Assembly (NCBI GenBank): GCA_000004695.1
Contig: CM000150.2
Coordinates: forward strand, 3,744,001-3,808,000
Reading direction: 5' to 3'
Length of the DNA: 64,000 bases
Origin: Dictyostelium discoideum
Lineage: Eukaryota
Positions 9,940 through 52,606 of this stretch are shown one piece after another. The position numbers were made by a program, and so were the translations under genes. Within the stretch, counting starts at the first letter, position 1. Each line of letters opens with the position of its first letter. The notes under the pieces are model-generated. The model was not told the DNA's origin and did no database searches. It saw only the letters and a list, made by a program, of their open reading frames with translations.

Positions 9940-10164
9940 CTATTAACAAAATAATTTTTTTTCATCAAACAATTAATGATATTAGTAGAAAATTAATATC
10001 TATCTTTTTTTAATTTATTTATTTTTATTTATTTATTTATTTTTTATCTTTATAACTAATTTCAATAATAATAAATTTATTTAAATTTTTAATATTTTTA
10101 ATTATTCAATACACTTTTTTTAAATTTTTAATAATTTTAAATTTTTAATATTTTTATTAATATC

Positions 10165-10520
10165 GATTACATTGTAGTTGGTGGCGTCCATGCTGAGTAT
10201 GCAATAAGGGTAATGCTTTCAATTCTTGGCATTGAATTTGATGAAATTAAGAACAAACATCAAATGAAAATAATTAGAACCAAATTTCAAAAAATAATGG
10301 TTCAATTAAAATAATTATTTTTTATTTTACCAATCATCCCTCAGACACACACAGGGATCCAATAGTTGATATTATTAAATTTAGATTATTGATAGAATAC
10401 TTTAATAATAATTATAATAATAATAATGATAATAATATAATAGAATTTGATCATTCACTAATGAAACATTACTTTGGAGAAGCTTAATGTCATTGGAATG
10501 ATATTTATATCACAGCATAA
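10165..10520 (+). pseudogene. fragment (copy 1) of a three-copy repeated gene-like unit; it lacks the upstream and downstream parts of copies 2 and 3
   Basis: About 90% identical to 18085..18440 (DYIVVGGVHAEYAIRVMLSILGIEFDEIKNKHQMKIIRTKFQKNNGSIKIIIFYFTNHPSDTHRDPIVDIIKF...). Begins abruptly at gattacattgtagttgg. Confidence 0.5.
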
Positions 10521-11147
10521 AAAAAAAAAAAAAATAATAAAAAATAAAAAAAATTAAATAAAATAAAAAAAAAATATAATTTTAAAATCTCTAACCTTTA
10601 CTCTTTACTTTGGGTTTTCAAAAAAATGTATATGGGTGTGAAGTTCGAATAGTTTTAATTCTTTATTTAATCAATATCTTAAATTAATTTAAGGTACATA
10701 ATTAAAATAAATTTAATAAATAATAAATAATTATTTAACTTTAATTATTTTTTTTATTTACTACTATTTTTTATTTTAATTTTATTATTATTATTCTTTT
10801 TATTTGATCGAGTCCGATGATTCAATTAATTATCTTGATTCTTCACATGTTAATCCTTTTGTTAGACTAAGATCATATACATTTGAGAAATTGCCATTTA
10901 AATAAACTTGACCACCAGTTACTATAAATTTAAAGTTTTACAATATATACCAATTGCAATATCATTACAAATACAATTACCAACGTGATCATTACATTTA
11001 TCAAATGGTGAATATTCGACTGAACAAGGAGCTCTATAATAAAATTCAATATATTAATGTTGCACCATTTCCATCTTATAATTTAATTTGTTGATTACCT
11101 TAACCTGCACCTATTGTACATATGATTTGTGGTTTATTACTTGAGTG

Positions 11148-11243
11148 ACAATCAGTGGTGGTGATGTTATAATGTCTTGTGATTTTAATATTATAAATAT
11201 TTGAAAAATCACAAGACATTATAACATCACCACCACTGATTGT
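11148..11243. repeat. perfect inverted repeat: 39-bp stem (11148-11186 / 11205-11243) with an 18-nt loop
   Basis: Arm acaatcagtggtggtgatgttataatgtcttgtgatttt and its exact reverse complement aaaatcacaagacattataacatcaccaccactgattgt, verified base by base. Confidence 0.9.
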
Positions 11244-11249
11244 TGGTAT

Positions 11250-11830
11250 TGATACTGATGATATTTGCATTTAATTGTTGATGTTGTTATGTTGATGTGT
11301 ATAATAATGTTGTTAATGTTGTTGATGTATATTTATTTTATTTGGTGAGGTTGTAGTATGTTGATGTTGTTGGCGTTGTTGATGTTGTTGATGTTGTTGA
11401 TGTTGTTGATGTTGTTGATTTTGTTGATGTTGTTGATGTTGTTGGTGTTGTGGATTTTGTTGATTTTGTTGATGTTGTTGATTTTGTTGATGTTGTTGGT
11501 GTTGTTGATGTTGTTGATGTAATATATATATTGGTTATTATTTTATTTTATTTTATTTTATTGTTGTTGATGTTGTTGATGTTGTATATATATATTGGTT
11601 ATTATTTTATTTTATTTTATTTTATTTTATTTTATTTTATTTTATTTTATTTTATTTTATTTTATTTTATTTTATTTTATTTTGGTGTTGTTGATGTTGA
11701 TGTTGTTGATGTTGTATATATATATATATTGGTTATTATTTTATTTTATTTTATATTATTTTATTTTATTTTATTTTATTTTATTTTATTTTATTTTATT
11801 TTATTTTATTATATATATTACTATTATTTT
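11250..11830. repeat. compound satellite: (GTTGAT/GTTGTT)n minisatellite (about 11250-11520, 11680-11710) interleaved with (ATTTT)n blocks (11531-11660, 11736-11812)
   Basis: Direct reading. ORFs 11450..11836 and 11595..11849 are translation artefacts of these repeats. Confidence 0.9.
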
Positions 11831-12465
11831 ATTTAATTTTTTTATTTAATTTACATTTTGTACTATATAAAATGAGTTGACATAATATTCTAAAAGAGAA
11901 TACTAATTTTGTAAAAATTTATTTATATTAATTATTGAATATCCTATTATTTATTTATATTATATTTATTATTACTATGAAGAATTGAGTAACTAATTTT
12001 GGAAGAACCTCTTGGTCATTTATCCTCACCCTCGTTATTAATAATTTTTTTTTTTATAATTTTTTTTTTTATTATTTTCTTTTTTTTTTTTTTTTTGTAA
12101 TTGACCAATTTCCGAACCCATATTGAAATAAAATATAATCAAAAAAATAAAAAAATAAAAAAAATGTGCAAAGTGATTTATTATTTTAATTTAAAAAATA
12201 AAATAAAATAAAATAAAAATAATTAAACAAAAAATAAAAATGAATAATAAAAAATATTACATACATTCTGGTTTTTATTTTTTTGCAAAGTCGCAAACAA
12301 TATTTATATTTTCTTACCAAAAGTTAAAATAAATAAATTTATTAAACTAAGATTAAATATTCTTTATTTTTTAAATACATTAAAAAAAAATAAAAAAATT
12401 GTAATGTTTTTATAGTTTTTTTTATTAATGTTTTTTTTTTATTTTTATTTTTTAAACAAAACTTG

Positions 12466-12880
12466 TTAAGCCCATACAGTCCTTTTTTATTTTAAAAAAC
12501 AATTTGAAGTGAATGTGATAAAATTTTTTTTTTAAAAAAAAAACAAAACTTGAGATCAGCTTGTACAGTCTGTTTTAATAAAAAAACCTTGAGATGGCCC
12601 ATTTAAAAAAAAAAAAAAAAAAACTTAAAGGCCAGCCCTTGTAGTCCATTTTTTTTTTAAAAAAAAAAATACCTTGTATTAGCCCGGTTGGCACGAATAG
12701 ACCGTTCAGCCCATGTAGTCCTTTTTTTTTAAAAAAAAAATACCTTGTATTAGCCCGGTTGGTACTAATAGACCGTTAAGCCCATGTAGTCCATTTTTTT
12801 TTTAAAAAAATACAAATGCCTTGTATTAGCCTGGTTGGCACGAATAGACCCTTTAAAGGGATCATGGCTTATTATTGTAA
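12466..12880 (+). repeat. tandem array of about 7 units. Each is A-run + GC-rich 30-50-nt core (consensus taccttgtattagcccggttggcacgaatagaccgttcagcccatgtagtcc) + T9-10 run. Candidate small-RNA (Pol III-like) gene array or satellite
   Basis: Units end in GCCCATGTAGTCC / GCCCATACAGTCC / CAGCTTGTACAGTC followed by T-runs. Two near-identical full-length units lie at 12662-12730 and 12731-12800. This is locally the most GC-rich DNA in a 20% GC region. Confidence 0.5.
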
Positions 12881-13066
12881 TAATGAAGATGATTGTAATG
12901 ATAATGATGTTGGATAAATCTACAATAAATTTTTTTTATTATTTTAGACATTAAATAATTAAACCATCTTTTTAATTTTTATTATTTATTTTAATTATTT
13001 ATTTATTTTTTACTATTACTATTTTTATAACGATTGGAGAGAACTAAAACAAAAAAAAAAAAAACA

Positions 13067-13101
<35 letters not shown>

Positions 13102-13697
13102 TATTAGATATACTATAGTATATTCTTCATTGACCATATCTGTTTATAGTAGAAATTGAAATGTTGTGGATTTCGAAGTTCATCATTAGTCTAGAGATCT
13201 AATGTGGTGAATTTGGATGTTCAACACCGCTCCAGAGAAATTAAATATACATTAAATAAATAAAATTAAATCAATTATAAAACAAATTGTATTATTTAAG
13301 TCCTTCTAGAGTACCACTCCTGTTACATTTTATAAATAATAAACTTATGAAATTCTTGTTTAATTCTTGAATTATTTTATAGATGTATTAAATTAAAATT
13401 ATAAAAAAAAAAAGTTAATGAAATTTCCAGCTTTTTCCACTTTTTGCATTTTTTTATTTTTTTATTTTTACTCCAAAAAATCAAATAACCCCCAAATATT
13501 AATTGGTTGAATAATTTTTTATATGTTTACAATTTTATGTTTTATTTATTTATAATCAAGTTTTATATCTTTATGGTTCTTTTTTTATCTATTACTAAAC
13601 CTGAAATATCCACCATTATCCCTTTACCTTCAATTTTTATTGGGTTTATTACACACTTAAGAAAGAATAACATAAATTCCCTGTTAAATATATTTAT

Positions 13698-13698
<1 letters not shown>

Positions 13699-13728
<30 letters not shown>

Positions 13729-13762
13729 GAACAAATAATTAGAGAGAGAGAGAGAAAGAGAG
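13699..13762. repeat. (GTAA)8 microsatellite followed by (AG)n
   Basis: gtaagtaagtaagtaagtaagtaagtaagtga, then agagagagagagaaagagaga. Confidence 0.9.
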
Positions 13763-13798
13763 AATAAGAATACTTACATGTACTATGCCCGGGATAAT

Positions 13799-14745
13799 AC
13801 CTAAAAGAAGAGAATTAAATTTAGCCAGAAGATTTATTAAAAAAAATAATAATAATTAATAAGTCATACTTTTTTTTTCATTATTTATGTTAGTAATACA
13901 TTGGCTCACAGCAAAGAAAATATCACATTTTCAATACCATAAAAATTAAAATTCTTTTTTACTGTAACATTTAATTTTCTTAAAAATGAAATTTTTAATT
14001 TTTAATTTACTTTAAAGTTTCATTTTAATGGTCATTTTAATGGTAAATGTAATTTAAATTATATTATTAATTATATTACTAATTATAATTTAACTAATAT
14101 TAATTATAATATCATTTAAATAACATTTAAATGACATTTAATTTTTAATGGTATTTAAATGATATTAAAAATATCATTTAAATTACATTTTATTTTAAAT
14201 GTCATTTTAATGCTGGATTTTCTTTGCTGTGCTGTATTATTAATCTACCAATACAATATTCAATAGTATATTTTTTAAAAAAAAGTAAAAGAATAGGATT
14301 TTGGTAACCTACCTAAAAAGAAGAGAATTAAATTTAACCAGAACGCGCTGGAACAGCCTTTCTTAATAAGTACAGCTAAAGGTTTATTTAAAAAACAATA
14401 ATAAAAATTAATAGGTCATACTTTTTTTTATTATTTTTTATCACAGCAAAGAAAATTTCACATTTTAATACCATTTAAATTACATTTAAATGTTCCAGTG
14501 AAAATGAAATTTAAATCTAGTTTAAAGTTTCATTTTAATGGTCATTTTAATGGTAAATGTAATTTAAATAATATTAATTACAATTTAAATGACATTTAAT
14601 TTTTAATGGTATTTAAATGATATTAAAACCATTTAAACTGCATTTTATTTTAAATGTCATTTTAATGCTGGATTTTCTTTGCTGTTCTGCATTATTTAAT
14701 CTACCAATACAATATTAAATAGTTTATTTTTTTTTTAAAAAAATA
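13799..14745. repeat. two tandem copies (13799-14300, 14311-14745) of a roughly 450-500-bp foldback/MITE-like unit with internal inverted repeats
   Basis: Both copies start cctaaaagaagagaattaaattta(g/a)ccagaa. They contain cacagcaaagaaaat ... attttctttgctgtg inverted pairs (13907/14218 and 14442/14672). They also contain nested palindromes (aatgatattaaaaatatcatt; taaatgacattta / taaatgtcattta). Confidence 0.6.
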
Positions 14746-14935
14746 CTTACCAACTGGTGATAAAAAGAATATACATAAAAGTAATAAAAGAATTGTACCA
14801 CATGCACCCATTTTATATTTATTTTTTAGTTTTTTTTTATGTGAAAGTTTTTTTTAATTTAAAAATAGAATTTAATATGTTATAACTAATGATTGAAAAA
14901 AAAAAAAAAAAAAAATTATATTTGTTGGTTTAATC

Positions 14936-14966
<31 letters not shown>

Positions 14967-15698
14967 AATAAATAAATAAAAAGAAAAAAAAAAAAAAAAG
15001 GGGTGCGGTTTAGTTAAAAAAGTCAAAATCTAATTATTTGAAAAATTTTAATATGGGGTTAAAACACCGTTAACTTAAAGGATGACCAATATAATTCATA
15101 ATAATATAACCAAACATTAATCCTTTTTTTAGAAAATCCACTAAATATTTTTTTTTTTATTTTTTTATTTTTTTTTTTTAATATTTTTAATTTTTTTTGA
15201 TTTTTTTTTTTTTGATTTGGAAAAAAAGACTTTCAACTATTCTTTAAATCCCAGTGCTTTTCCGCTAATAAAATGAATATTCATTATTATAAAAATAACC
15301 TCAAATTTAAATTTTTTTTTTTTTTTTAATTTTATGTTTTTTATTTTTAATTTTTTTTTTTTTTTTTTTAAAATGATTTAATTATTTGAATAAAAATTTC
15401 AGATTCTCTCTAAGTTTATTTTAATAAACCAAATTTCAAATTTTTTAGGCTTTATTTTATAAAAAAAGATTATATTTTAAAATTAATGGGTATTTTAAAT
15501 TTCAAAACACATTCACCAATTCAACACAACACAAATTATTTTTTATCATTAAAATAATAAAAAATAATTTGATGATAACACACAAATTTTTTTTTTTAAA
15601 TAATCAATTAAATATAAAATGAAAAAGTTTTGCTTTTTGGTGGTGTAATGTTTAAACACAATATTTGTTGATTTTTTATTTTTTTTTTTTTTTTGTTT

Positions 15699-15751
15699 TT
15701 TTATAAGGTTGGATATAAAAATTTGAAATTTTTATATCCAACCTTATAAAA
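15699..15751. repeat. perfect 53-bp palindrome (26-bp arms around a single central g at 15725)
   Basis: tttataaggttggatataaaaattt g aaatttttatatccaaccttataaa, verified base by base. Followed by a GC-enriched segment at 15760-15890. Confidence 0.9.
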
Positions 15752-16129
15752 TAACAACACTAAAGTGCGCTGGTTGGTTAGCAATGGCCTCGTTTAATTT
15801 CAAGTCATACATGTATGCATCAAAACAAAAAAATTTAAAAACTGATTGTCTGAAAATGTGATTCAGTTGCACGCATTTTTTTTCAAAAAAAAAAAACAAA
15901 AAAAAAGTTGAAAAAAAAATTAAAAAAAAAAAAAAAAATTCTTATAAAAGGGAAAAAAAAATAAATAAAATTTTTTAACGGTTTTTTTTTAAAAACTGCA
16001 AATAAAAATAAAATCTAGACTGTTTTGTGGTTATAATGAATATTTATTTATATTTCTTTGATTTTTTTTTTTTTAAATTTTTCTATATTTCCTCTTTTAA
16101 AAAAACTGGAAAAAACTGGAATAATTCAA

Positions 16130-16620
16130 ATTAGTTGGGTTTGGAGGGTAAAATAAAAAAAATTATGATTGGAGAAACCTCTCCCCCTTTTTTTAAAAAA
16201 GAGCGTAGGGGAGGGTAGTTTGTATGAGAAATTGAACTTTTCCACCCTTCTTTTGAAATTATTTAGTAAATATGTTTCGAATTGATAACTTTGTGATGCA
16301 ATTTTGAGATATGGTTTAATAGAAAAATTCCAGTATCCCAATGATATATTATTATTAAAATGGTAAAATTGCAAGGAAGGAAGGAACGTCACTCACCCCT
16401 TTTCTTTGAAAAAAAAAAGTTCCTCTTTTTGAAAAATTTTAGTAAAAGTAAAGTTTTGAACTGATACCATTGAGGTGCATTTATGCTAAATATATATTTA
16501 AATAGAAGAATTCTAGGGGAATCTAATGACATATTTCGCTTTTAGTGTTATGGTAAAATAAAAAATTATGGGGTAAGGACCTTCTGTAGTTTTCATGAGA
16601 AACTGCCCTTGTCCCCATTT
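16130..16620. repeat. degenerate tandem repeats of about 170 bp (at least 2.5 copies), with C-rich ends (ctctccccc, ccaccc, cactcacccc, ttgtcccc)
   Basis: Repeated ttgaaattatttagtaaa...ggtaaaat... blocks. ORF 16126..16392(-) is unlikely to be real. Confidence 0.55.
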
Positions 16621-16743
16621 TTTTTTTTTATTTAAAATTGGATATATAAATTTTTTATTTTTTTATTTTTATTTTTATTTTTTTATTGACAAAGACACTG
16701 ACATATCTGATATTTTCATTTTCATTTTTTTTTTTTCATTCTA

Positions 16744-16792
<49 letters not shown>

Positions 16793-17224
16793 CAACAATT
16801 TAATTTTAAAATGAATTTATTGATAAATAGAGCAATCAAAAATAAACAAAATGATATGAAAAATAAAAAAATTAATGTAATTATATATTTTTTTTAAATT
16901 TTTTTTTTTTTAACTAAAATTATTTTTTCAGAATTTAATTATTTTTCATTTTAACAACGAGAGGGAATATATTTAAATAAAATAATAGATATTAAAAAAA
17001 CCAAAAATTGGTTGAGTTGGAATATTTTTTATTTATTTTAATGTCAAATTTGAATGTTTGAATAAATAAAATTAAAAAAAAAAAAAAAAAAACAATTTAA
17101 TCAATTTTTTATTAGTTTTTATTTAAAATCTATTTTTTTTTAATAAAATATCTTCCCTACTCTTTTTTCTTTAAAATAAAAATAATTACAAAAAACATAT
17201 GTTTAAAAATTAAATTCTAAAAAT

Positions 17225-17272
<48 letters not shown>

Positions 17273-17759
17273 GGAAATTATAAGCCCACCAAGATTTTTT
17301 GAAACATATCAATAATAATTTTGTTTGAAATTTCAATCGAAAATATTATACTTTCATTTTAGTATCAGTGAATATTTTTACTTTATCAATCACCAATAAA
17401 TCCTCTTGGGTAGTGGATACAATTGGACAAGCTTTCACAATTAAAAAGTGCTTAGTCTCTACGCAATATTGGTGATATTTTTAAAATAGAAAACAATATT
17501 ATAATAGTTTTTTTATTTATAAGAAAAATAATTTAAAAAAAGAAAAATCAATCGATTTAGAATCAACAAAACTTTTATCATTAAAATATAATAATAATCC
17601 AATTAAAGGTTGGTTATAACGAGAAAGTATTCAATTTACTTTCGATAGATTGTTTATTAATTTTATAGTTTCAAATGGTGATCTAAATTTATTTTTGGAT
17701 TTCCATTCATAAGAGAAATGTGCAAAAACTTCATTTCAAATCTTAAATCCAAAACCTTT

Positions 17760-18760
17760 TCAACATTTTCATCTATCTTTGGTTATTTTCAAAATAATAA
17801 AAATAATAATAATAATAATAATAATAAATTAATATTAGTATACCAAATACCAAAAAGTACAAAGAATATACTTTTAGATAATAATGGTAGACAAGCATTC
17901 ACCATAAAATATTTTTTTCAATTTCTATAAATATATTGGTGATGTATATGATAGAGAAAACACAATCATAAGTCATTTATTAATTTTCATTCACAAATCA
18001 ATTTCTGGTGTTCATGAACCTATCAATGGTAACCATTTATATATTTTAATAATTGCTTTTTTATTTATAATTTAATTTTGCAGACGATTACGTTGTAGTT
18101 GGTGGCGTCCATGCCGAGTATGCAATAAGGGTAATTCTTTCAATTCTTGGCATTGAATTTGATGAAATTAAGAACAATCATCAAATGAAAATTATTAGAA
18201 CTAAATTTCAAAAAAATAATGGTTCAATTAAAATAATTATTTTTTATTTTACCAATCATCCCTCAGACACACACAGGGATCCAATAGTTGATATTATTAA
18301 ATTTATATTATTGGTAGAATACTTTAATAATAATAATTGCAATAATAATAATATTATTATAAAATTAGATCAATCACTGTTGAAATCATTTATCAAAAAT
18401 TATCAAATTTTGTTCAAAAACCAAGTAGTGGTTGTGTGATGATTTAATAAATCATATTAATTTTACTGATAATGATGAATGCAATCATAGTTTCGTATAT
18501 TCACCAATCATCAATTTTAACATTTTCGAATCAATTTTAAAACCAACAGATTCAAAAATAACAAGTATTGATGATTCAACTTCCAGTGATTACCAATTTT
18601 AAAAAATGGAATTTTTAAAATTTCATTCAATAATATTATAACTTCAATTAAAACAACTTCAAGCAAATCACCGTCAACTAAATGGAATAACAAAGCAATC
18701 AAATATCACCCAAATAATGAAACAAAGCTTGCTACCAATGCTATATCTAGCATTTGAATA
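17760..18760 (+). pseudogene. copy 2 of the repeated gene-like unit; disabled by a 1-bp insertion (ctataaatat vs tacaaatat) and a degenerate 3' part
   Basis: Shares the upstream block ...ttcaacattttcatc..., the core DDYVVVGGVHAEYAIRVILSILGIEFDEIKNNHQMKIIRTKFQKNNGSIKIIIFYF... and a decayed downstream part with copy 3 (23870-24998). The frame breaks relative to copy 3. Confidence 0.5.
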
Positions 18761-19158
18761 TTTAGCAACTTTTATTTCGCCATTTTGGTCTGTCGAAAGA
18801 TCTTTCGACAAATTAAAAGGGCAAAACAAAAGTTATCAACTATTCAAAGAATAGACATAGTATCGATGCAAATTTAACTTTAGTTGATCTTGTCAAATTA
18901 AATTAAATAATAAATAAAATAAAATAATTTGTTATTATTATAATTAAAAAAAAAAATAAAATATATTAAAATTTAATCAAATTATACCTTAATAATAAAA
19001 AAATAAAAAAAAAAAAAAGTCTACGAAATGTATTAAATCTACATAAAACCAATCGAGTATTGATTTGTAATAATATTTTTTTTTATTATATATATATAAT
19101 AGAGAATTTTCAAATATTGATATCTCTTTGTGATTTTTTTTTTTTTTTTAATAATAAT

Positions 19159-21064
19159 TTAAGTGAATTGATTTTCATTATTAAAAACATGAAGTTGTGG
19201 TTGTTGTTGAGGAGATGATTGGGCTTGTGGATTTTCATTATTAAAAACATGTTGTTGATGTTGTTGTTGTTGTTGTTGTTGTAAATGAACCTGTTGTTGT
19301 TGATGTTGATTTTGTTGAATTTGAATTTGGAATTGTTGCATTTGAATTAATTGATTCAATTGAGCCAACATAATTGATTGATTATCCTCAAGTGATTTAA
19401 TTTTAAGTTGTAAAGATTCAATGATTTTAATACTACTATTATCATTGTCATCACTTTTTGTTATCGTTGTAACATCACAATTGGATAGAGTTGATTTAAT
19501 CTCTTCAATGATTGAACTTTGTTGTGATGGTTGACTATCTTGACATTGAGATTGAATTGCTCTACGTTCTCTTCTCATTCTACTTAAAGTTTTAGCATAT
19601 TCGATATATTTCACACAAAACAATGCTTCCTTACTATTAAACATTGATCTATTTTGTGATATACTCATACTAGATTGCCATCTCCATCTTCTCCAAACCA
19701 ATTGAATTAATCTAGCTGCTGAATCTCTTTCTTTCTTTTGTGCTTCAACTAATGATACTAAATTTAATATTGGTCTTTGATGACTCGTTGCTTGAGTTAA
19801 TCTTGCAAAACTTTCAATTACAAATGATAATAATAATAAACCAAAAATACATGCAACCTAAATAAATATTATATATAAAAAATATATATATATATATATA
19901 TTAGTAATGATTTCTTTAAAATTTTAAATAATAAATATTTAAAAATGAATATTTACAATTGCAGCAAATCTACCACCAAAAGTTTGTGGATTATATTCAT
20001 CATAGGTATCAGTTGGCCAACCAGTGATCATAGAGAGAAAAGAGATATAGACAGAAACAGCAAAAGTGAATAGTTCATTTCTCTCCCTTTCAAAGACATA
20101 CATCCATTGACCAGTAACAGCCAATGTGAAAATTGTGAATGTTAAATAAGTGAGAATTGGTGCTATTGAAATGATATATTTTAAACTTAGTGTCCAATTG
20201 AATTTTGGAGCTACATCACGTAACAACTGCTTTTGAATATGGAATCTAAGTTTATAAACTGGACTGAAATCACGAAGAATTCTACAAAATAAATATAATC
20301 TTAACCACATTAATAAACCCCATTTGGAATCTTTATACCATGCATTCTCACCAGATACAAATGGTAATGGTTGTAATGAACAAACTAATATTTCACACCA
20401 AAATAATGGACCTAATTTAGTTGATTTTAAAACATTTACTCTTGTAACCCTAAATCCTCTTGCTCTCTTTGTTAACCAATCATGTGTTACCTCTGATAAT
20501 AATAATAAATAATAATCAACTAACTGAGTACCTAAAAAAAATAAAAAAAAAAATAAAAAAGTTAAAAAACAAATATTAACATAAATAAATACAAAAAAAA
20601 AAATACATACATAAAATTAAATTTAAAATGAATATGATTGCTCTTAATATTTTTGTTGATTTATTAATTTCCAATGAATGATTTTCAACACTCCATGATA
20701 ATTGTAATTCTGTGCACATTAACGAAACACCAATCATGCCATTAATCATAATGAGTACATATCTATGTCTAAGGATTCTATCTGTATTTTCTGATCTTAT
20801 TTCACTAAAATCATTTTTTTGGAAAAATACCAAAGGTTGTGAAAAGAAGAGAAAAAAGAGGAGAGAAAAAAAAAAAAAAAAAAAAAAAAAGCATTATGTT
20901 AATATTAAATCTTTTTTTTTTTTTTTTTTTTTTTTTTCCCAGTTCGAAAAATTGTTCTCTTACCTATATTTGTCAATATTACTTAATGATTTTTCTAAAA
21001 TTGGTAATTCTGATTCAGAATCTTTTAACCTTTGCAGATTGATAAGTGCTTTTCTTCTTGACAT
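19159..21064 (-). CDS. small-conductance Ca-activated K channel (SK/KCNN)-like 6-TM protein with a non-canonical pore (FLSMITGWPTD in place of FLSIGYGDMVP), a C-terminal IQ-like motif and a Gln-rich tail; exons 21064..20964, 20804..20611, 20531..19957, 19857..19159
   Basis: Exon 1 MSRRKALINLQRLKDSESELPILEKSLSNIDKY then GTAAGA. S1 YVLIMINGMIGVSLMCTELQLSWS (compare SK [22 protein letters not shown]), EILVCSLQPLPFVSGE (SK EMLVCAIHPIPGE) and S4-like LMWLRLYLFCRIL (SK FLRLYLIARV). All three junction phases verified. The ORF track M residues at 20833 and 20310 are TTG/internal starts, not the true start. Confidence 0.55.
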
Positions 21065-22206
21065 TATAAATTATAAAAAAAAAAATAGCCTTGACACTAC
21101 TACCCCCAATGTAACGAAATAATAATTATATGGTGTGGTTGCTATAGTAATAATATATAGTTATAATAACTTGATTTGTTGCTTCTTTTTTTTTTTTTTT
21201 TTTTTTTTGATTTCTTATGTAATTATTAGATTGTTGCGTATATAAATAAAAATATATATATATAAATGTTTGTGTGTGTGTGTGTGGTATGAAAGTGTTC
21301 TATTTAAATTTATTTTTTATTTTTTATGTGTATGGTGTGTATGATGAATTATTTGTTTTTTTATTTATTTATTTTTATTTGTTTGTTTGTTTATTTTGTT
21401 TATTTACTGTGTCTTTAATAAAATGTAATCCTATTAAAAAAACAAGATGTTAAATATAAAAATACCCATACATAGTGGTAGTAGTGTAAGAAAATAAAGA
21501 AAGAGAAGAAAAAGGAGATAAAATTGTTGAAATACTATATATAATTATATAGTTATATATAGCAAAAATAAATAAAATAATAAAAAAAAAGGTTAAGCGA
21601 ATAATAAAAAAAAAAAAAAAAAATTAAAAAAAAAAAAAAAATTAAAAAAAAAAAAAAAAATTATTTTTAAAATTTGACCGATAACACTCTATTTCTAGGA
21701 GTGTAAAAAAAATAAAAAAAAATAAAAAAAAATAAAAAAAATAAAAAAAATAAAAAAAAAATAAAAAAAAGGTTATTTTCTGTGATAAAATAAAAAAAGA
21801 AAAATAAAAAATAAAAAAAATAAAAAATAAAAAATAAAAAAAAAATCAATTATGTTAAAAATTTGTTTCAAAGAAATAAAAGGATAATGATTAATGGTAT
21901 TGTTAATTAATTCCTACCTATCTGTGTCAATACATATATTCATCATATACAAATCAGTTAATAAATAAATTTATTATAAATTTGTTTTATAAATACACAA
22001 TGACGTAAATTATAATATGAATAAAATAAAATAATAAATAATTTAAAAAAAAAAAAAAAAAAAAACATTCACTATAAAAGTAAGATAAAAAATAAAATTA
22101 TTTATTTATAAAATAATATAAAAAGTAATAATAAAAGAAATAAAATAATAATAATAAAAATAATAATTGAAAAAATAAAAATAAAAAAAATAAAAATTAA
22201 ATAATA

Positions 22207-22797
22207 ATGGATCAGCCACAACAACAACAACAAAATCAAGTTATAGATAATCAAGGTAGTAGTAATAATAATAGTAGTAGTAATAATAATAATAATAATG
22301 GTGGAATTAAGCATAAAAAAAGATTTCAAGTTGAAAATGCAATAATGGGAATGATATTTTTTGGATTATCAATATTTTTAATAATTTATGGTATAGTTCA
22401 AATTGCAGTTGCAAGTGGTAAAGATGATATTTCATCACGTCATACATGGGCATTTACAGTTAATGGTATTTTCTGTTTAATTACTGGTTTTCATGGATTC
22501 TTTTTATTATTCCATAAAAGAGGTAGTGCAAAACATCATGTATTGTTAAATATTATATTGGTAGCTCAAGCATTCATTCTATTTATCATTTATTCAGCAT
22601 TGGTTCACCGTTATATCAATAGAGATTGTGGTGGTGAATTTTATCAAAATCCATATTGCGTTCACGATCATAAAGTTTATATAGGAATTTCATTGGCTAT
22701 ATTTTGGGCTGTCAATATCTTTACTTTACCATTCTCTTTAATTTGCTCAATTATTCATTTGAGAAATCAAAATCATCATAATGTTGAAAATGTTTAA
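22207..22797 (+). CDS. hypothetical small 4-TM membrane protein with a Gln/Asn-rich N-terminus
   Basis: A single 196-aa ORF with four hydrophobic segments (MIFFGLSIFLIIYGIV; FCLITGFHGFFLLF; LNIILVAQAFILFIIYSALV; IGISLAIFWAVNIFTLPFSLICSII). Confidence 0.5.
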   Translation: MDQPQQQQQNQVIDNQGSSNNNSSSNNNNNNGGIKHKKRFQVENAIMGMIFFGLSIFLIIYGIVQIAVASGKDDISSRHTWAFTVNGIFCLITGFHGFFLLFHKRGSAKHHVLLNIILVAQAFILFIIYSALVHRYINRDCGGEFYQNPYCVHDHKVYIGISLAIFWAVNIFTLPFSLICSIIHLRNQNHHNVENV

Positions 22798-23513
22798 ACG
22801 CACACACATACAACACAAATCACAAAGATAAATAAATCCTTTCAAATTCAATCGAATATATTTCTTTTTTTTTTTTTTTTTTATTTTAAAAAATTAAAAA
22901 ATTAAAAAATAAATATAAATAAAAATAAATTCAAAAATTTTTTTTTTTTTTTTTTCTTATTATTTTGTATAAATTTAATATGTTTTATTTTATTTTTGTT
23001 GATTAATTATAATTGTAAAAATATTAAATTGATTTGAAATTTTTAATTTAAATGACTGATGAATGTTTCAAAACTTTTATCATTGAATTAAAATATAATT
23101 ATATATTAAAGGCTGGATATATATTAAAAACTCTAATTGATTTTAATAGATTGAAAAATTAGATTATAATTTCTGATGGTGATTAAAGTTTAGTTGATAC
23201 TGAGTTGTGGTATACAAATATCACTAATGAATAGAACCTCAAAAAACAACCTTGTATAACACATATCAACACCAATTGAACTTTATTCTCCCAACAAAAA
23301 ATTAAAAATTCAATAAACAATCCATCAAAAGAAATTGCAATTTTTCCTCTATATCCAACCTTTAATATAATTGTTGCATATGGCAAAAGTTTTGTTGTTT
23401 CTAAAGCTATGATATTATTATTATTATTATTAATATTATTTTGTAAATATGAAAAAAAAAAAAAAAAAAAAAAATTTATTATTTTACAATAAATCATCTA
23501 TTTTTATAATAAA

Positions 23514-24998
23514 ATGTCAACCAATATAAATTTTAAAGACATGAGTTCTTATAAATATTTATCAAAACTTAAAGTTATTGATAAAGATTTTATAATTAAA
23601 TGTTTAAACATGGCGAGTAAAAAGGATGAACTTTCTTTAATTTTAGATTCAACAATAGATTTACCATTTAAGTTTAGTGATATTAGTATAACTGGTTGGA
23701 AATATAATGAAAAGATTCCATTTACATTGGATTACCAAAAATTTGACGAGTATACCATTTATCTACGTCGATTAGCCATAAATCTCCATATGCAACCAAG
23801 AATTTAATAAACAACTACTCCATTCATTAGAGAACTTATAAAAGAATCTATTTTAAACTTAAAATCAAATAAATTTTCAACATTTTCATCAGTTTTTCAA
23901 AGTTTTCATCATAATTCCAATAAAAGGATAATTTTTTTAAACCAATCAAAAAAATAAAGATTGGATGAAATTATATTACTATGGTTACGAACAATCTTCA
24001 GTTATAAAAGAAGTATTTGAATTTTACAAATATATTGGTGATGAATATGAAAGAGAAAACACAATAGTAATGGATCTTTTATTTTTTATTGGTGGAACCA
24101 ACTCTGGTATTCAAGATTCAATCAATGGTAATCACATTTACATTTTAATGATAGTTTTTTTATTCTTAATAGAATTGGCCGATTATTTTATCGTGGTTGG
24201 TGGTGCTCACGCTCAATAAGCAATTAAGTTAATATTATCAATTTTGAAAATTGAAGTTGAACAAATTCAAAACAATCATAAAATGAAATTTATAAGAATC
24301 AAATTTCAAAGCAATAATGGTTCATTTAAATCAATCATTTTTTATTTCTCCAGCTATCCATCAGATTTAAGTATAGATCCAGTCATTGATATCATTAAAT
24401 TTAGATTATTGGTAGAATACTTGATTTATCAAATAATAATAATAATCAAAATAATAATAATAATATCATTGAATTTGAAGAATCATTAATTAATTCAGTA
24501 TATCAAAGTTTATTTCAATTTGTACAAAAACCAAGTATTAGTTGCGTTAATTGTGGTGCTTATGAAAGTGTAACCAATGATTGCTGTCACAGATTCGTAT
24601 ATTCACCAATCTTTGAATTTAATATTTTCAAATCAATTTAAAAATCAACACCTACAACTACTACAACAACAACAACTGATAATTCAATTTCTAATCAATT
24701 GGATTCAACAATATTAAAAAATGGTATTTTTAAAATTTCATTCAATAACCTTGAAAAACCATCACCAAAAGAACAATTTTTAGCACAATATCCAAGATTA
24801 AAGATTTCATCAATTTTTAATACAATCAAATCTTCATTTCAATCAACAGATAATAAGCATTATTGTGGTTATTTAAAATGTAATTCAAGTTTTGATGATG
24901 TTGACAGGTTATCACTCCACATGGTGAAAGAACATCCATGTGATGAAACACCACCTGGTTCAAAATTCTTTATTATTAGAGGTGGATCAAACAATTGA
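23514..24998 (+). pseudogene. copy 3 (the most complete) of the repeated gene-like unit; its 3' part encodes a C2H2-type zinc finger (HYCGYLKCNSSFDDVDRLSLHMVKEH). It is interrupted by an in-frame TAA (tat in copy 2) and a frameshift
   Basis: ORFs 23514..23807, 23965..24219, 24244..24489 and 24699..24998 are collinear with copies 1 and 2. The stop inside ...VVGGAHAQ*AIKLILSIL... sits exactly where copy 2 has Tyr. A further frame slip and stop lie near 24425-24640. It may be a functional gene in other strains. Confidence 0.45.
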
Positions 24999-25161
24999 AC
25001 AACAAAGATTAAATCAACCAACTGAAGAAATTATTTATTTTTTTTTTTTTTTTATTCAAATAATTATTGCTTTTTTTTTTTTTTTTTTCAAGGTTTTTAG
25101 TATAATTAATTAATAAATTTATTTTTATTTTTTTATTTTTTTTATCAATTATTAATAAAAT

Positions 25162-26134
25162 TTATTGATAATCATATGATTTTGTACGAGGAGCACGACA
25201 AATACGAATAATTAAAAACAAGGCGAAAAGCATACAAATAAATTCGATGACGCCAATTGAAACAGCAGCAGCACCAACCAAATAAAGATTTGAAGAGATT
25301 TTTGAAGAGATTACACTATCACAAGTATCGGTATATTTTGGAATACCTTTTGAATCCTTTGGACAAAGTAAAGGGTTTCTAGAACTGGTTGAATTCCAAT
25401 AGCAACATTTTAAGAAATTTTCTAATTTCAAAATTGTAGAATTCTTTGGACCATTTGATACATCTTCCCAAGCATTTCCAATTTGTTTAACAACATCATC
25501 ATTATGTAATGTTAAAGCTTTACCACCAACACCAATTAATGCAACTAAAATAATTAACATTAACATTGTATAAATTACCAAACCAACCAATTTCTCTTTT
25601 CCTGCCACAAAACAGCCAATAACTGTTAATATAACAAAGAAAATACCAATAACCAATACACCTGCTGGTGCTCCAGTTGTTAAATTTGAAAGTGCAGCTG
25701 AAGCTTTTGAAACTTTTGTAAAATCTTTAAAATTTGAAAAAAAGCTAACACCAATACTACCAATAATTACTTTTTTTTTTAAAAAATAAAAAAAAGAAAT
25801 AAAAGAAGTTTTTAAAAAAGAAAAATAAAAAATAAAAAAAAGAAAAATAAAAAAATTAATAATTAATATTTTTGAATAAATATAATAATAAATTTTATTA
25901 ACTAATAGTTCTTACCTAAAACTAAACCAAGAACCTATAATAATAATCAAAAAAAAAAAAAAAAAAATAAAAAAAAAATAAAAAAAAAAAAAAATAAAAA
26001 AAAAAATTAATAATAACAATTTATTTAATAAAATAATTAAATATAAAGCTTACCCAAAGAATAGTATTAAATGCAATTAATGGAACTTTAAGATATCTTG
26101 GAGTATTAGGAATTAAATTTGTTGTATCAACCAT
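25162..26134 (-). CDS. tetraspanin family protein (paralogue 4); exons 26134..26054, 25934..25916, 25769..25162
   Basis: Exon 1 MVDTTNLIPNTPRYLKVPLIAFNTILW then GTAAGC. A 19-nt exon 2 encodes VLGLVL. Exon 3 has four TM segments, a CCYW motif in the large extracellular loop and the family tail IRICRAPRTKSYDYQ. Phases verified. Confidence 0.8.
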
Positions 26135-44646: not shown

Positions 44647-45004
44647 TTTTATTACCTTTTTTTTTTTTTCTATTTTTTTTTTTTTTTGTTTTATTACCTT
44701 TTTTTTTTTTTCTATTTTTTTTTTTTTTTCTATTTTTATTAATCAATTCCTATTTTTATTTATTTTTTAACACGCAGTTTCTTTCGGTTGGATTTTTTTT
44801 TTTTTTTAAAAAAAAATAAAAATAAAAAAAAAACCAAAATAAAAAAAAAAGAAATCAAAAAAAATATTCACCACATTTTCACCACCACGCCCATAACACT
44901 TATAATAGTTTTGTAGTAATACATTGAATAACTTTTATTCTTTTTTTTAATTTTTTTTTTTTTTAATTTTTTAATTTTTTTATTTATTTATTTTTAATAT
45001 AAAA

Positions 45005-45143
45005 ATGGTAAACACAAGAGATTTTCTTCCTAAAACCACACATTACTTAAAAGTTCCGATTATTGGTTTAAATGCAATTCTCTGGGTAAGTTTATATTAA
45101 TTTATATTAAAATAAAATAAAAATAAATACTAATACTTTTTCA

Positions 45144-45219
<76 letters not shown>

Positions 45220-46079
45220 TTTTAATTATTTATTATAATTATTTATAGTTACTTGGGTAAATTTTATATTTTTTGATAGATTTTTTTTTTTTTTTTCAAT
45301 TAATTTATTATTAACTAAATTTTTAAATATATATATATATATATATATTTTTAATTTAGACTTGTTTTAATAGTTGTTGGATCAGTTTGTATAAGTTTTT
45401 TTTCAAATTTTAAAGAGTTTACCAAAGAATCAGGATATAAGAATGCATTATCGAATCTTACAACCAGTGCACCAACTGGTGTTTTAGTTATTGGTATATT
45501 TTTCATTTTATTAACACTTGTTGGTTGCTTTGTAGCATATAAAGAGAAATTGGTTGGTTTGGTTTTATATACAATGTTAATGCTAATTTTATTGGTTGTA
45601 TTAATTGGTATTGGTGGTAAAGCTTTAACATTAGATAAAGAGGATGCTGTATCTATTATTGGTACATCATGGGTACAAATTTCAAACTCTTTAAAGAATT
45701 CCACAATTACAAAATTGGAAGATTTTTTAGAATGTTGTTGTTGGTCCGAATCTTATTCCAATCAAACCTATAAAGACCTTTGTCCAAAAGATGATGATGG
45801 AAATATTAAATATGAAGATACCTATTGCGAAGGTATCTTTACTAAACAAGTTTCAAGTAAATTAGTTTTAGGTATTTATCATTCTATTTTTATTACTATT
45901 ATTGTGTTGAATATTTTTTTATTATTTTTTTTTTTGAAAATACTAATTTATTTAATATTTTAGTTGGTATTGCTGGTGTAGTTATTGGATGTATTGAATT
46001 TGTTGCAATGGCATTATCACTCTTTTTAATCATTCGTATTTGTCGTTCTCCACGTAGTAGAGCCTATGATCAATATTAA
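45005..46079 (+). CDS. tetraspanin family protein (paralogue 1); exons 45005..45085, about 45360/45361..45871, 45964..46079
   Basis: Exon 1 MVNTRDFLPKTTHYLKVPIIGLNAILW then GTAAGT. Exon 2 LVLIVVGSVCISFFSNFKEF...CCCWSE...DLCPKDDDG...KLVL-g|GTATTT. Exon 3 VGIAGVVIGCIEFVAMALSLFLIIRICRSPRSRAYDQY*. The exon 1/2 junction does not restore the frame with the only canonical AG (45358-59), which is 1 nt out of phase; see findings. Confidence 0.65.
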
Positions 46080-46952
46080 TAAAAGTAAAACTATTTATTT
46101 TTCTATTTTACAAATTGTCATCTCCAATTTTTATGCTTGGTTGGTAAAAAAAAAAAAAAAAAATAAACAAAATAAAAAGTTATTGTAAACACAAAAAAAA
46201 AAAAAAACTAAAAAAAAAAAAAAAAAAAAAAAAAAAAGTGATTTCACCAGGGATTATTAGGAAAAATTTAATTTTAATTTTTATATTTTTTTTTTTGGGT
46301 TTACAATAACTTTTTAAAATAAATTCTTAGGTAATATATTTTTTTTTTTTATAATTATTAACATATGTTATCTTCTTTTTTATTTTTTATTTTTTAATTA
46401 TTTTCAATAGTGATGTTTATAAATAAACAAAGAAATAATGGGAAACTCTAACAAGCCTTTGAGTGATTAGATTTTCAATCATTTCCTCTTCCATAATCCA
46501 ATGTATTTATATATTAATATCTAAAATTGGAGCTTGGTTATTTAACCCACCTCTTCTATTAAAAATTATTTAAATAAAGTTAAAACTCATTAATTTTATT
46601 TTATTTTATTTTGAAAAAAAAAAAAAAAAAAAAAAAAAAAACATTACCCTGTCCTTGCATTTGTTTTAATTTTTAAAATAAATATAGAAGGGAATAAAAT
46701 ATTGTTATTATTATTAATTAAACTAAATAAATAATTAATTTTTTAGTTTCCAAAAAATTTATTTGTTTTTCAAATTTTTTTTTTTAAAAAAAAAAAAAAT
46801 AAAAATAAAAAAAAATAAAAATTAAAAGATAGGGATATTGATTTTTTTTCCTCTCAGTTGGTGTGGTGATATTAAATAATAAAATTCAATGTGTAGTAGA
46901 AAGAAAGATATTTTATATATTGTTAAAGAATGTAATTATAATTTATTTTGTT

Positions 46953-51203: not shown

Positions 51204-52160
51204 ATGGTAGATACATCAAATCTTTTACCACAAACACCAAGACTTTTAAAAGTCCCATTAATTATTTTAAATATTATCCTTTGGGTATGTATTTTAATTT
51301 TTTTTTTTTTTTTTTTTTAAAACAAAAACTAAAAATAAAAAAAAAAAAAAAGATAATTGCAATATTAAAAAATAAATAAATAAATAAAAAAAATAAAATA
51401 AAAAAATATATTTTAATTAATAATATCTTAAAAAAAAAAAAAAAAAAATCTTTAGATTCTTGGTTTAGTTTTAGTTATTGTTGGTGGTATTTGTGTTAGC
51501 TTTTTATCAAATTTCAAAGATTTCACAAAAGCCAGTGATGCTAAATCAGCTCTTTCAAATCTTACAACCAGTATTCCAGCTGGTGTTTTAGTTATTGGTA
51601 TCCTCTTTGTAATTTTCACTGTTGTTGGTTGTTTCGTTGCGTAAGTATACCAATAATAATAAATTATTATTATTATTATTATTATTTATTTTTATTAACA
51701 TTTTATAAAATAATATAGTTACAAAGAGAAATTAGTTGGTTTAGTAATCTATTGTGCAGTAATGTTAATTTTATTAGTTATTTTAATTGGTGTTGGTGGT
51801 AAAGCTATAACATTACACAATGATGATATCATTAATGAAGTTGGTGGTGCTTGGGAACATGTTGCCAATGGTACAAAGAATAGCACCCTCACTCGTCTCG
51901 AAAATTTCTTAAAATGTTGTAAATGGTCAAACGTCTCAATAGACTCTTCAGATTTATGTCCAAAAGATGGTGATAAAATTAAATATGAAGGTCACTATTG
52001 TGGTGAAGCTTTAAGTGACCAATTCAGTTCAAAAATCTATGCTGTTGGTGCTGCTGGTTTAGCCATTGGTATCATTGAACTCGTTGCCATCCTTTTCTCA
52101 TTATTCTTAATTATTCGTATTTGTCGTTCACCAAGAACTCGTTCATATGATCAATATTAA
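51204..52160 (+). CDS. tetraspanin family protein (paralogue 2); exons 51204..51284, 51456..51640, 51719..52160
   Basis: MVDTSNLLPQTPRLLKVPLIILNIILW|GTATGT; ILGLVLVIVGGICVSFLSNFKDF...VVGCFVA(gc|GTAAGT); t+ YKEKLVGLVIYCAVML...KCCKW...DLCPKDGDK...IRICRSPRTRSYDQY*. All phases verified. Confidence 0.8.
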
Positions 52161-52606
52161 ATAAATAAATAAAACAAAATAAATAAATAATAGTAATAAA
52201 ATCAAAAATTTAAAAATATCAACAAAATTAATTTTTTTTTTTTTTTTTTTTTCTAAAAATAGAAAAAAATAAATAAATAAAAAATTTAAAAAAATAAAAA
52301 AAAAATACAAATATGCATCAAAACTGTTTAATTCTCTTTTTTTTTTTTTTTTTATTTATTTTTTATGAGAACCAAAACCTTGTTTTTTGATTTTTTTTTT
52401 TTCAGCCTGTGGTTTCGATTTCTTTAAATAAACGTTTATTTTTTTTAATTTTTTTTTTTTTTTTTTTTAATTTTTTTTATTTTTTAATTTTTTTTTTTTA
52501 TTCACACTGTTTTTTTACATGTGAAACTATTGACCACAAATATTTAAAAAAAAAAAAAAAAAAATTAAAAACTATAATAAAATTGTAATATATATATAAA
52601 TAAAAT

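Follow-up and report, generated by a model that had tools for sequence, protein, structure and literature searches.

The stretch of Dictyostelium discoideum chromosome 1 analysed here (the window; 64 kb of AX4-like DNA with a G+C (GC) content of ~20% and long A/T runs) contains three copies of a gene-like unit, all in the same orientation, whose coordinates are collected in Table 1 with those of associated features. Copy 3 is flanked by somA and a tetraspanin gene (a position referred to as slot 3), copy 2 lies upstream of somA (slot 2), and copy 1 is a smaller piece further to the left. All three are broken in three-frame translation, and none is able to make a full protein. An intact counterpart is present at slot 3 of a related lineage, and we consider it very likely that the window copies are the remains of a small, locally duplicated family of single-exon, 581-codon zinc-finger genes that is known only from the D. 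discoideum group and is dead in this genome.

Orthologous loci from four other assemblies were compared with the window. The first, L001 (assembly GCA_054883475.1), is near-identical to the window, yet is a distinct sequence, with 6 differences in 1706 nucleotides (nt) across copy 3. The other three, L002, L003 and L004, were fetched via members of the somA protein cluster and are from assemblies labelled D. discoideum or D. cf. discoideum; L003 is D. cf. discoideum, whereas L004 (GCA_054859355.1) is labelled D. discoideum and is 10-13% diverged from the window. Because the flanks of these three loci share 84-90% identity with the window, compared with the ~0.3% average divergence described for closely related strains (preprint, bioRxiv 10.1101/2025.10.22.684067), they are probably from sibling or cryptic lineages.

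The intact gene is an uninterrupted, single-exon open reading frame (ORF) at L004:12468-14213. Because about 9% of random codons would be stops at its base composition (24.5% GC), an ORF of this length is not expected by chance (a probability of ~1e-23 by our own calculation), and because it runs uninterrupted the parent gene is intron-less. The unit of which the window copies are derivatives is thus 1.75 kb (581 codons) in length, rather than the roughly 1 kb proposed in a first-pass annotation of the window, and there is no separate zinc-finger exon of the kind envisaged there.

Table 1. Coordinates of the gene copies, their lesions and associated features, in the window unless indicated otherwise (aa, amino acids).
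Feature	Position	Strand	Description
Copy 1	10119..10470	+	Type A; 352-bp internal fragment, ~codons 208-340; gene start and end missing
Copy 2	about 17536..18640	+	Type A; heavily decayed pseudogene, ~codons 37-428
DDB_G0269862	17718-17927		AX4 model, 70 aa, inside copy 2
DDB_G0270674	about 18717-18854		AX4 model, 45 aa, just 3' of copy 2, across hairpin
N-terminal fragment	23069..23195	+	70.9% identical to copy 2 17567-17694; arm of imperfect palindrome 23102-23369
Inverted N-terminal fragment	23299..23457	-	73.1% identical to copy 2 17508-17671; head-to-head with copy 3
Copy 3	23514..25033	+	Type-B pseudogene; 84.6% identical to intact L004 ORF, codons 1-515
95-bp micro-inversion	23728..23822	-	~Codons 72-103 of copy 3; TGGA/TCCA inverted repeat at bounds
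2-nt deletion	23946..23950 (placed at 23948)	+	Frameshift at copy 3 codon 145, in A-rich run
Nonsense TAA	24217..24219	+	Copy 3 codon 236; TAT in copy 2, L003 and intact L004 ORF
Frameshift at start of poly-Asn tract	24420..24435	+	61-nt net deletion relative to intact ORF, codon 306
Counterpart of CxxC-x10-CCH motif	24543-24590	+	CVNCGAYESVTNDCCH; aa 364-379 of intact protein
Nonsense TAA	24639..24641	+	Copy 3 codon 396; TTT in intact ORF
Surviving C2H2-type finger	24864..24935	+	CGYLKCNSSFDDVDRLSLHMVKEH; C-x4-C-x12-H-x4-H; finger 1 of intact protein; only finger in window
19-nt insertion and end of homology	24972..25033	+	Frameshift at codon 502, then homology ends at ~codon 515
N-terminal region, L004 protein	~460 aa		No relative detected
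Poly-Asn tract, L004 protein			Present in intact protein
Finger 1, L004 protein	aa 466-489		C-x4-C-x12-H-x3/4-H (regular expression)
Finger 2, L004 protein	aa 518-547		Non-standard C-x8/10-C, unusually long Cys-Cys spacing (regular expression)
Finger 3, L004 protein	aa 555-577		C-x4-C-x12-H-x3/4-H (regular expression)

Copy 3 is the best preserved copy in the window, and the first-pass annotation described it as nearly intact; this understates the damage. Besides the 95-bp inversion there are three frameshifts and, outside the inverted segment, two nonsense codons, and the copy is truncated, with the last 66 codons, encoding fingers 2 and 3, deleted and about 435 bp of L004 replaced by a 37-bp T-rich stretch. 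Re-inverting positions 23728-23822 brings the copy back into frame and recovers the conserved LFIKFLV..GDLW.IDVD.W..RQIFG. Other details of the original description hold up well, including the TAA at 24217-24219 where copy 2 has TAT (as does the intact ortholog), the C2H2 motif at 24864-24935, and the end of the encoded sequence at ...PPGSKFFIIRGGSNN. Several of the copy 3 indels lie in homopolymer or poly-AAT tracts that are prone to error, as would be expected if the frameshifts and stops were sequencing or assembly artefacts in a copy that is really intact. However, every lesion is also present in the independent assembly L001, and the AX4 gene models DDB_G0269866 (97 aa), DDB_G0269868 (84 aa) and DDB_G0269870 (158 aa) begin or end at these same lesions, and for these reasons they are not sequencing errors. 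Nor do nonsense substitutions, a 95-bp inversion, or a 435-bp deletion resemble homopolymer errors, and we give practically no credence to an intact copy 3. In its homology to an intact coding gene and its genuine disabling lesions, copy 3 resembles a non-processed pseudogene that arose by local duplication.

The three copies are clearly homologous and are where the first-pass annotation placed them, with blastn E values from 1e-54 to 1e-127. The 85-90% identity that it reported applies to copies 1 and 2 (10119-10470 against 18036-18390; 88.6% over 359 nt, E 5e-127) but not to copy 3, which shares 72.3% identity over 755 nt with copy 2 (24004-24748 against 17904-18633, E 5e-115) and 75% over 304 nt with copy 1 (10171-10465, E 3e-54). 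Copy 2 is ~65% identical to the intact ORF, and its tail is indeed decayed, being unrecognisable past codon 428; a single 1-bp insertion had been noted, but there are 11 frameshifting indels and several in-frame stops. Copy 1, correctly identified as truncated, is ~73% identical to the intact ORF, has a frameshifting 1-nt deletion of its own in an A-run, and is recovered by tblastn with the intact 581-aa protein (aa 225-303). The GC content is 24.5% in the intact gene, 24.6% in copy 3, 22.0% in copy 2 and 21.3% in copy 1, compared with 14-16% in intergenic DNA, and this gradient fits a graded age of the copies. The first-pass annotation overlooked two extra N-terminal fragments in a palindromic, inverted arrangement just upstream of copy 3, the second of which sits within a minus-strand ORF (23183-23497) and has a counterpart in L004 at 11064-11234.

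We note two further features near copies 1 and 2. Just past the recognisable 3' end of copy 2 there is a 126-nt imperfect palindrome (18738-18863) centred on GTCGAAAGATCTTTCGAC, which as RNA would fold into a hairpin whose stem measures ~60 bp (-43.2 kcal/mol; z = -6.5 relative to shuffled sequences). It matches nothing in Rfam and is conserved in both L002 and L004, with the central stem showing a single symmetric G:C to A:T change, and in both lineages the copy 2 deletions end near it. It may represent the precursor of a hairpin RNA, or else a fragile palindrome at which rearrangement is promoted. In the interval that separates copies 1 and 2, a 9-nt unit (GTTGATGTT-like) and the pentamer TTTTA are repeated in long tandem arrays (11289-11850), of which those of the 9-nt unit probably code for His/Gln/Asn repeats on the minus strand.

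In AX4, copy 3 is split into the three genes mentioned above (UniProt Q55CX0, Q55CW9 and Q55CW8, with Q55CW8 named 'C2H2-type domain-containing protein'), and two other models are placed in the copy 2 region (Table 1). The five models concern the same DNA as the present analysis and reproduce exactly the translation of parts of copy 3 and of the copy 2 region, but they are treated in AX4 as five independent hypothetical proteins, whereas here they fall on two pseudogenes of a single gene, with DDB_G0270674 just beyond copy 2. If AX4 and the ACTFIT assembly were right to annotate the fragments as genuine small genes that contain introns and function separately, then these five models and the three spliced models ACTFIT_007494, ACTFIT_007495 and ACTFIT_007497 would be accounted for, as would the GC content of copy 3, which is still coding-like. 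Several observations make this decidedly unlikely. First, the intact ortholog is intron-less, and the exon structures of AX4 and ACTFIT conflict with each other (P0006 plus P0007 against P0008, and P0009 against P0010). Secondly, the proposed introns excise conserved coding sequence just to bridge frameshifts, and the ORF ends fall on nonsense or frameshift lesions at conserved codons. Thirdly, the 95-bp inversion scrambles codons 72-103. A GT...AG intron candidate at ~codons 205-222 was considered and rejected, as the intact ortholog reads through a conserved hydrophobic stretch at this position and L003 lacks the GT. A full-text literature search for the DDB_G identifiers found only the neighbouring gene, somA. 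The small AX4 genes on the copies are very probably gene-prediction artefacts on or beside two pseudogenes, and there is value for curation both in recognising five AX4 'hypothetical protein' genes and three spliced models of a newer assembly as such, and in being able to define the true parent gene (581 aa, intron-less) from a sibling lineage.

A mobile origin was also raised in the first-pass annotation, as a non-LTR or other mobile-element-derived ORF. Under such a proposal the unit, whether from a non-LTR retrotransposon, a DNA transposon or an mRNA copied back by retroposition, would have been inserted on three occasions. The unit is intron-less and roughly transcript-sized, one slot is empty in L003, and the homology between the type-B sequences at different slots (L004 slot 3 and L003 slot 2) extends from ~35-40 nt before the ATG to ~80 nt past the stop, all of which would suit such an origin. 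Against it, Pfam and PDB searches with the reconstructed and intact proteins revealed no reverse transcriptase, endonuclease, integrase or transposase domain, and neither terminal inverted repeats nor target-site duplications are visible at the unit edges or at the L003 empty site, although A/T-homopolymer flanks weaken this test. The profile search with a 90-position core described below likewise gave the proposal no support, with no other cluster found among 1.84 billion representative proteins. Furthermore, the copies in the sequence examined are confined to 15 kb of the 64-kb window and to syntenic slots of the four loci. Scanning the window for Rfam families and tRNAs returned nothing, so that there is no tRNA gene here, whereas the TRE elements of Dictyostelium target tRNA genes. 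We therefore regard insertion of a mobile element as highly improbable.

The decaying local gene family that the first-pass annotation put forward as the other possibility is strongly favoured by the presence of a single parent, intact in a related lineage, by the occurrence of its pieces within 15 kb, and by syntenic slots and graded decay. Among the orthologous loci, L004 has a 360-bp type-A remnant at slot 2 in addition to the intact ORF at slot 3 and the counterpart of the inverted fragment. L002 has no copy at slot 2 and only the last 115 codons at slot 3 (97% identical to L004), with no other pieces seen. L003 has a nearly full-length type-B copy at slot 2 with two frameshifts, at L003:5294 and 5689, and no stops, an empty slot 3, and an inverted degenerate C-terminal fragment. 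An intact copy is thus kept in one of the four lineages compared. With clustered paralogs and a slot content that differs across L002, L003 and L004, the locus has the hallmarks of a local birth-and-death family. The C-terminal fragment (L003:688-1197, minus strand) covers the zinc-finger region, contains stops, and has ~76-80% DNA identity to the type-B copies; the equivalent position in the window, ~13.0-13.4 kb, contains no such fragment.

Two sequence types can be distinguished over the shared core, with copies 1 and 2 and the L004 slot 2 remnant forming type A, and copy 3, the L004 gene and the L003 copy forming type B. With an unrooted tree, the simplest reading is that the ancestral gene was first at slot 2 and would have been duplicated to slot 3 around the time of the L003 split, with the slot 2 copy decaying long ago in the D. 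discoideum lineage at a roughly neutral rate. We infer this origin and neutral drift because copy 2 and the L003 copy are 67% identical, which approximately matches the 66-74% identity that L003 and the window show in intergenic DNA close to slot 2. A 352-bp piece of the slot 2 copy would later have been copied 8 kb upstream to give copy 1. Inactivation of the slot 3 copy would be the more recent event, combining a hairpin-type micro-inversion with a 3' deletion, two nonsense substitutions, and indels caused by slippage in the poly-Asn and homopolymer tracts. Alternatively, the arrangement may reflect an older duplication together with gene conversion in L003. The family had been called young, and this would be apt for copies 1 and 3, but the copy 2 and copy 3 types separated before, or at the same time as, the lineages compared diverged. 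Pairwise ratios of nonsynonymous to synonymous substitution (dN/dS) are 0.5-0.7, and on the simplest reading the slot 3 copy would have stayed under weak constraint.

The intact protein is most likely a sequence-specific nucleic-acid-binding (regulatory) protein, as judged from its finger motifs. The spacing C-x2-4-C-x12-H-x3-5-H is satisfied by window positions 24864-24935 and by aa 466-489 and 555-577 of the L004 protein. Pfam scores are sub-threshold, at 14.2 bits for zf-C2H2 (gathering threshold 25.2) and 19.9 bits for Zap1_zf1 (gathering threshold 27.2), with the window copy at 11.9 bits for Zap1_zf1, also under the gathering threshold, and there are weak matches to GLI (2gli) and YY1 (1ubd). 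The CxxC-x10-CCH motif is a possible additional metal-binding site. The N-terminal ~460 aa have no relative in Pfam, NCBIfam or PDB sequences; a profile of the N-terminal 436 columns had no match to PDB sequences, and the intact protein had none in NCBIfam. An AlphaFold2 model of a 104-aa core from copy 2, made from a 4-row alignment, has a mean predicted local distance difference test (pLDDT) score of 55, too poor for a fold search.

The family appears to be confined to the D. discoideum group, as suggested by a profile HMMER search with a 90-position core, built from window-exact fragments, of a library of 1.84 billion representative proteins (called proteins only); this had a single match, AX4 DDB_G0269870, which is from the same locus. 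A word-index protein search with the reconstructed copy 3, a version cleaned of low complexity, and the intact L004 protein found nothing, but it failed its positive control, missing P0006 and P0009, two members of the same collection that match parts of the query with 100% identity; the result is thus a false negative, to which we give no weight.

Several considerations count against parts of the interpretation of these copies as the relics of a lineage-restricted zinc-finger family. The group restriction comes from one profile search with the 90-position core; distant relatives could have escaped it, as could further copies in the genome that lack a gene call. The zinc-finger assignment depends on a Cys/His pattern and on Pfam matches under threshold. 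The unrooted tree leaves the ancestral slot uncertain, and L003 has type B at the slot where the window has type A; the two L003 frameshifts were seen in one assembly and may be homopolymer errors. Lastly, a truncated product could still be made, such as that of the 158-aa DDB_G0269870 model, which includes finger 1.

The pattern of losses suggests that the gene may be dispensable. We can also speculate that it arose recently as a lineage-restricted zinc-finger regulator whose N-terminal fold is new, that it has a function in conflict or an arms race, and that it was lost independently across lineages, which would have occurred by point lesions in AX4-like D. discoideum, by a 5' deletion in L002, and by frameshifts and absence in L003. 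We think this unlikely, but if true, the losses could reflect selfish-element repression or a social or kin role and not mere dispensability.

The genes flanking copy 3 anchor the slots. The complete ORF at 22207-22797 (plus strand) is identical to a protein of GCA_054883475.1 and clusters with AX4 DDB_G0270980 (somA), on chromosome 1, which has been reported as a stalk-enriched cell-type marker that is conserved across Dictyostelia (PMC9117722). The somA product is a claudin-like membrane protein, and in one assembly's model (ACTFIR_004419, 324 aa) it is wrongly fused to the leftover zinc-finger tail of copy 3. The tetraspanin gene adjoining copy 3 (25162-25656, minus strand; Pfam PF00335, E 2e-26) has two diverged paralogs in the window at ~44945-46083 and 51473-52213, with 67-76% DNA identity, and these constitute a second local gene family. 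By eye only, the empty copy 3 site of L003 (~11050-11100) resembles a short tetraspanin fragment on the opposite strand.

Comparison with known systems places this locus as a small, clean case of orphan-gene turnover in closely related social amoebae, involving duplication, micro-inversion, slippage frameshifts and deletion, and bringing no new mechanism to light. Fingers 1 and 3 of the intact protein share the C-x4-C finger spacing of GLI/YY1/Zap1-type C2H2 proteins, but the matches are weak and below Pfam gathering scores, finger 2 has long Cys-Cys spacing, and the 460-aa N-terminus is without a detectable relative. The vertebrate KRAB-ZNF clusters are tandem zinc-finger genes under birth-and-death evolution. 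In both cases C2H2 genes duplicate locally, change rapidly in sequence and often turn into pseudogenes; in contrast, the Dictyostelium family is tiny (one to two full copies per genome), has three fingers and no KRAB-like domain, and is not known to be linked to transposon repression. At the Dictyostelium tgrB/tgrC locus, local duplications, deletions, rearrangements and pseudogenes differ among strains and cryptic species (PMC12745789; bioRxiv 10.1101/2025.10.22.684067). The genes are unrelated, and unlike that locus the zinc-finger locus shows no evidence of balancing or diversifying selection and has an intact copy in only one of four lineages, but the two are alike in their fast turnover with resident pseudogenes.

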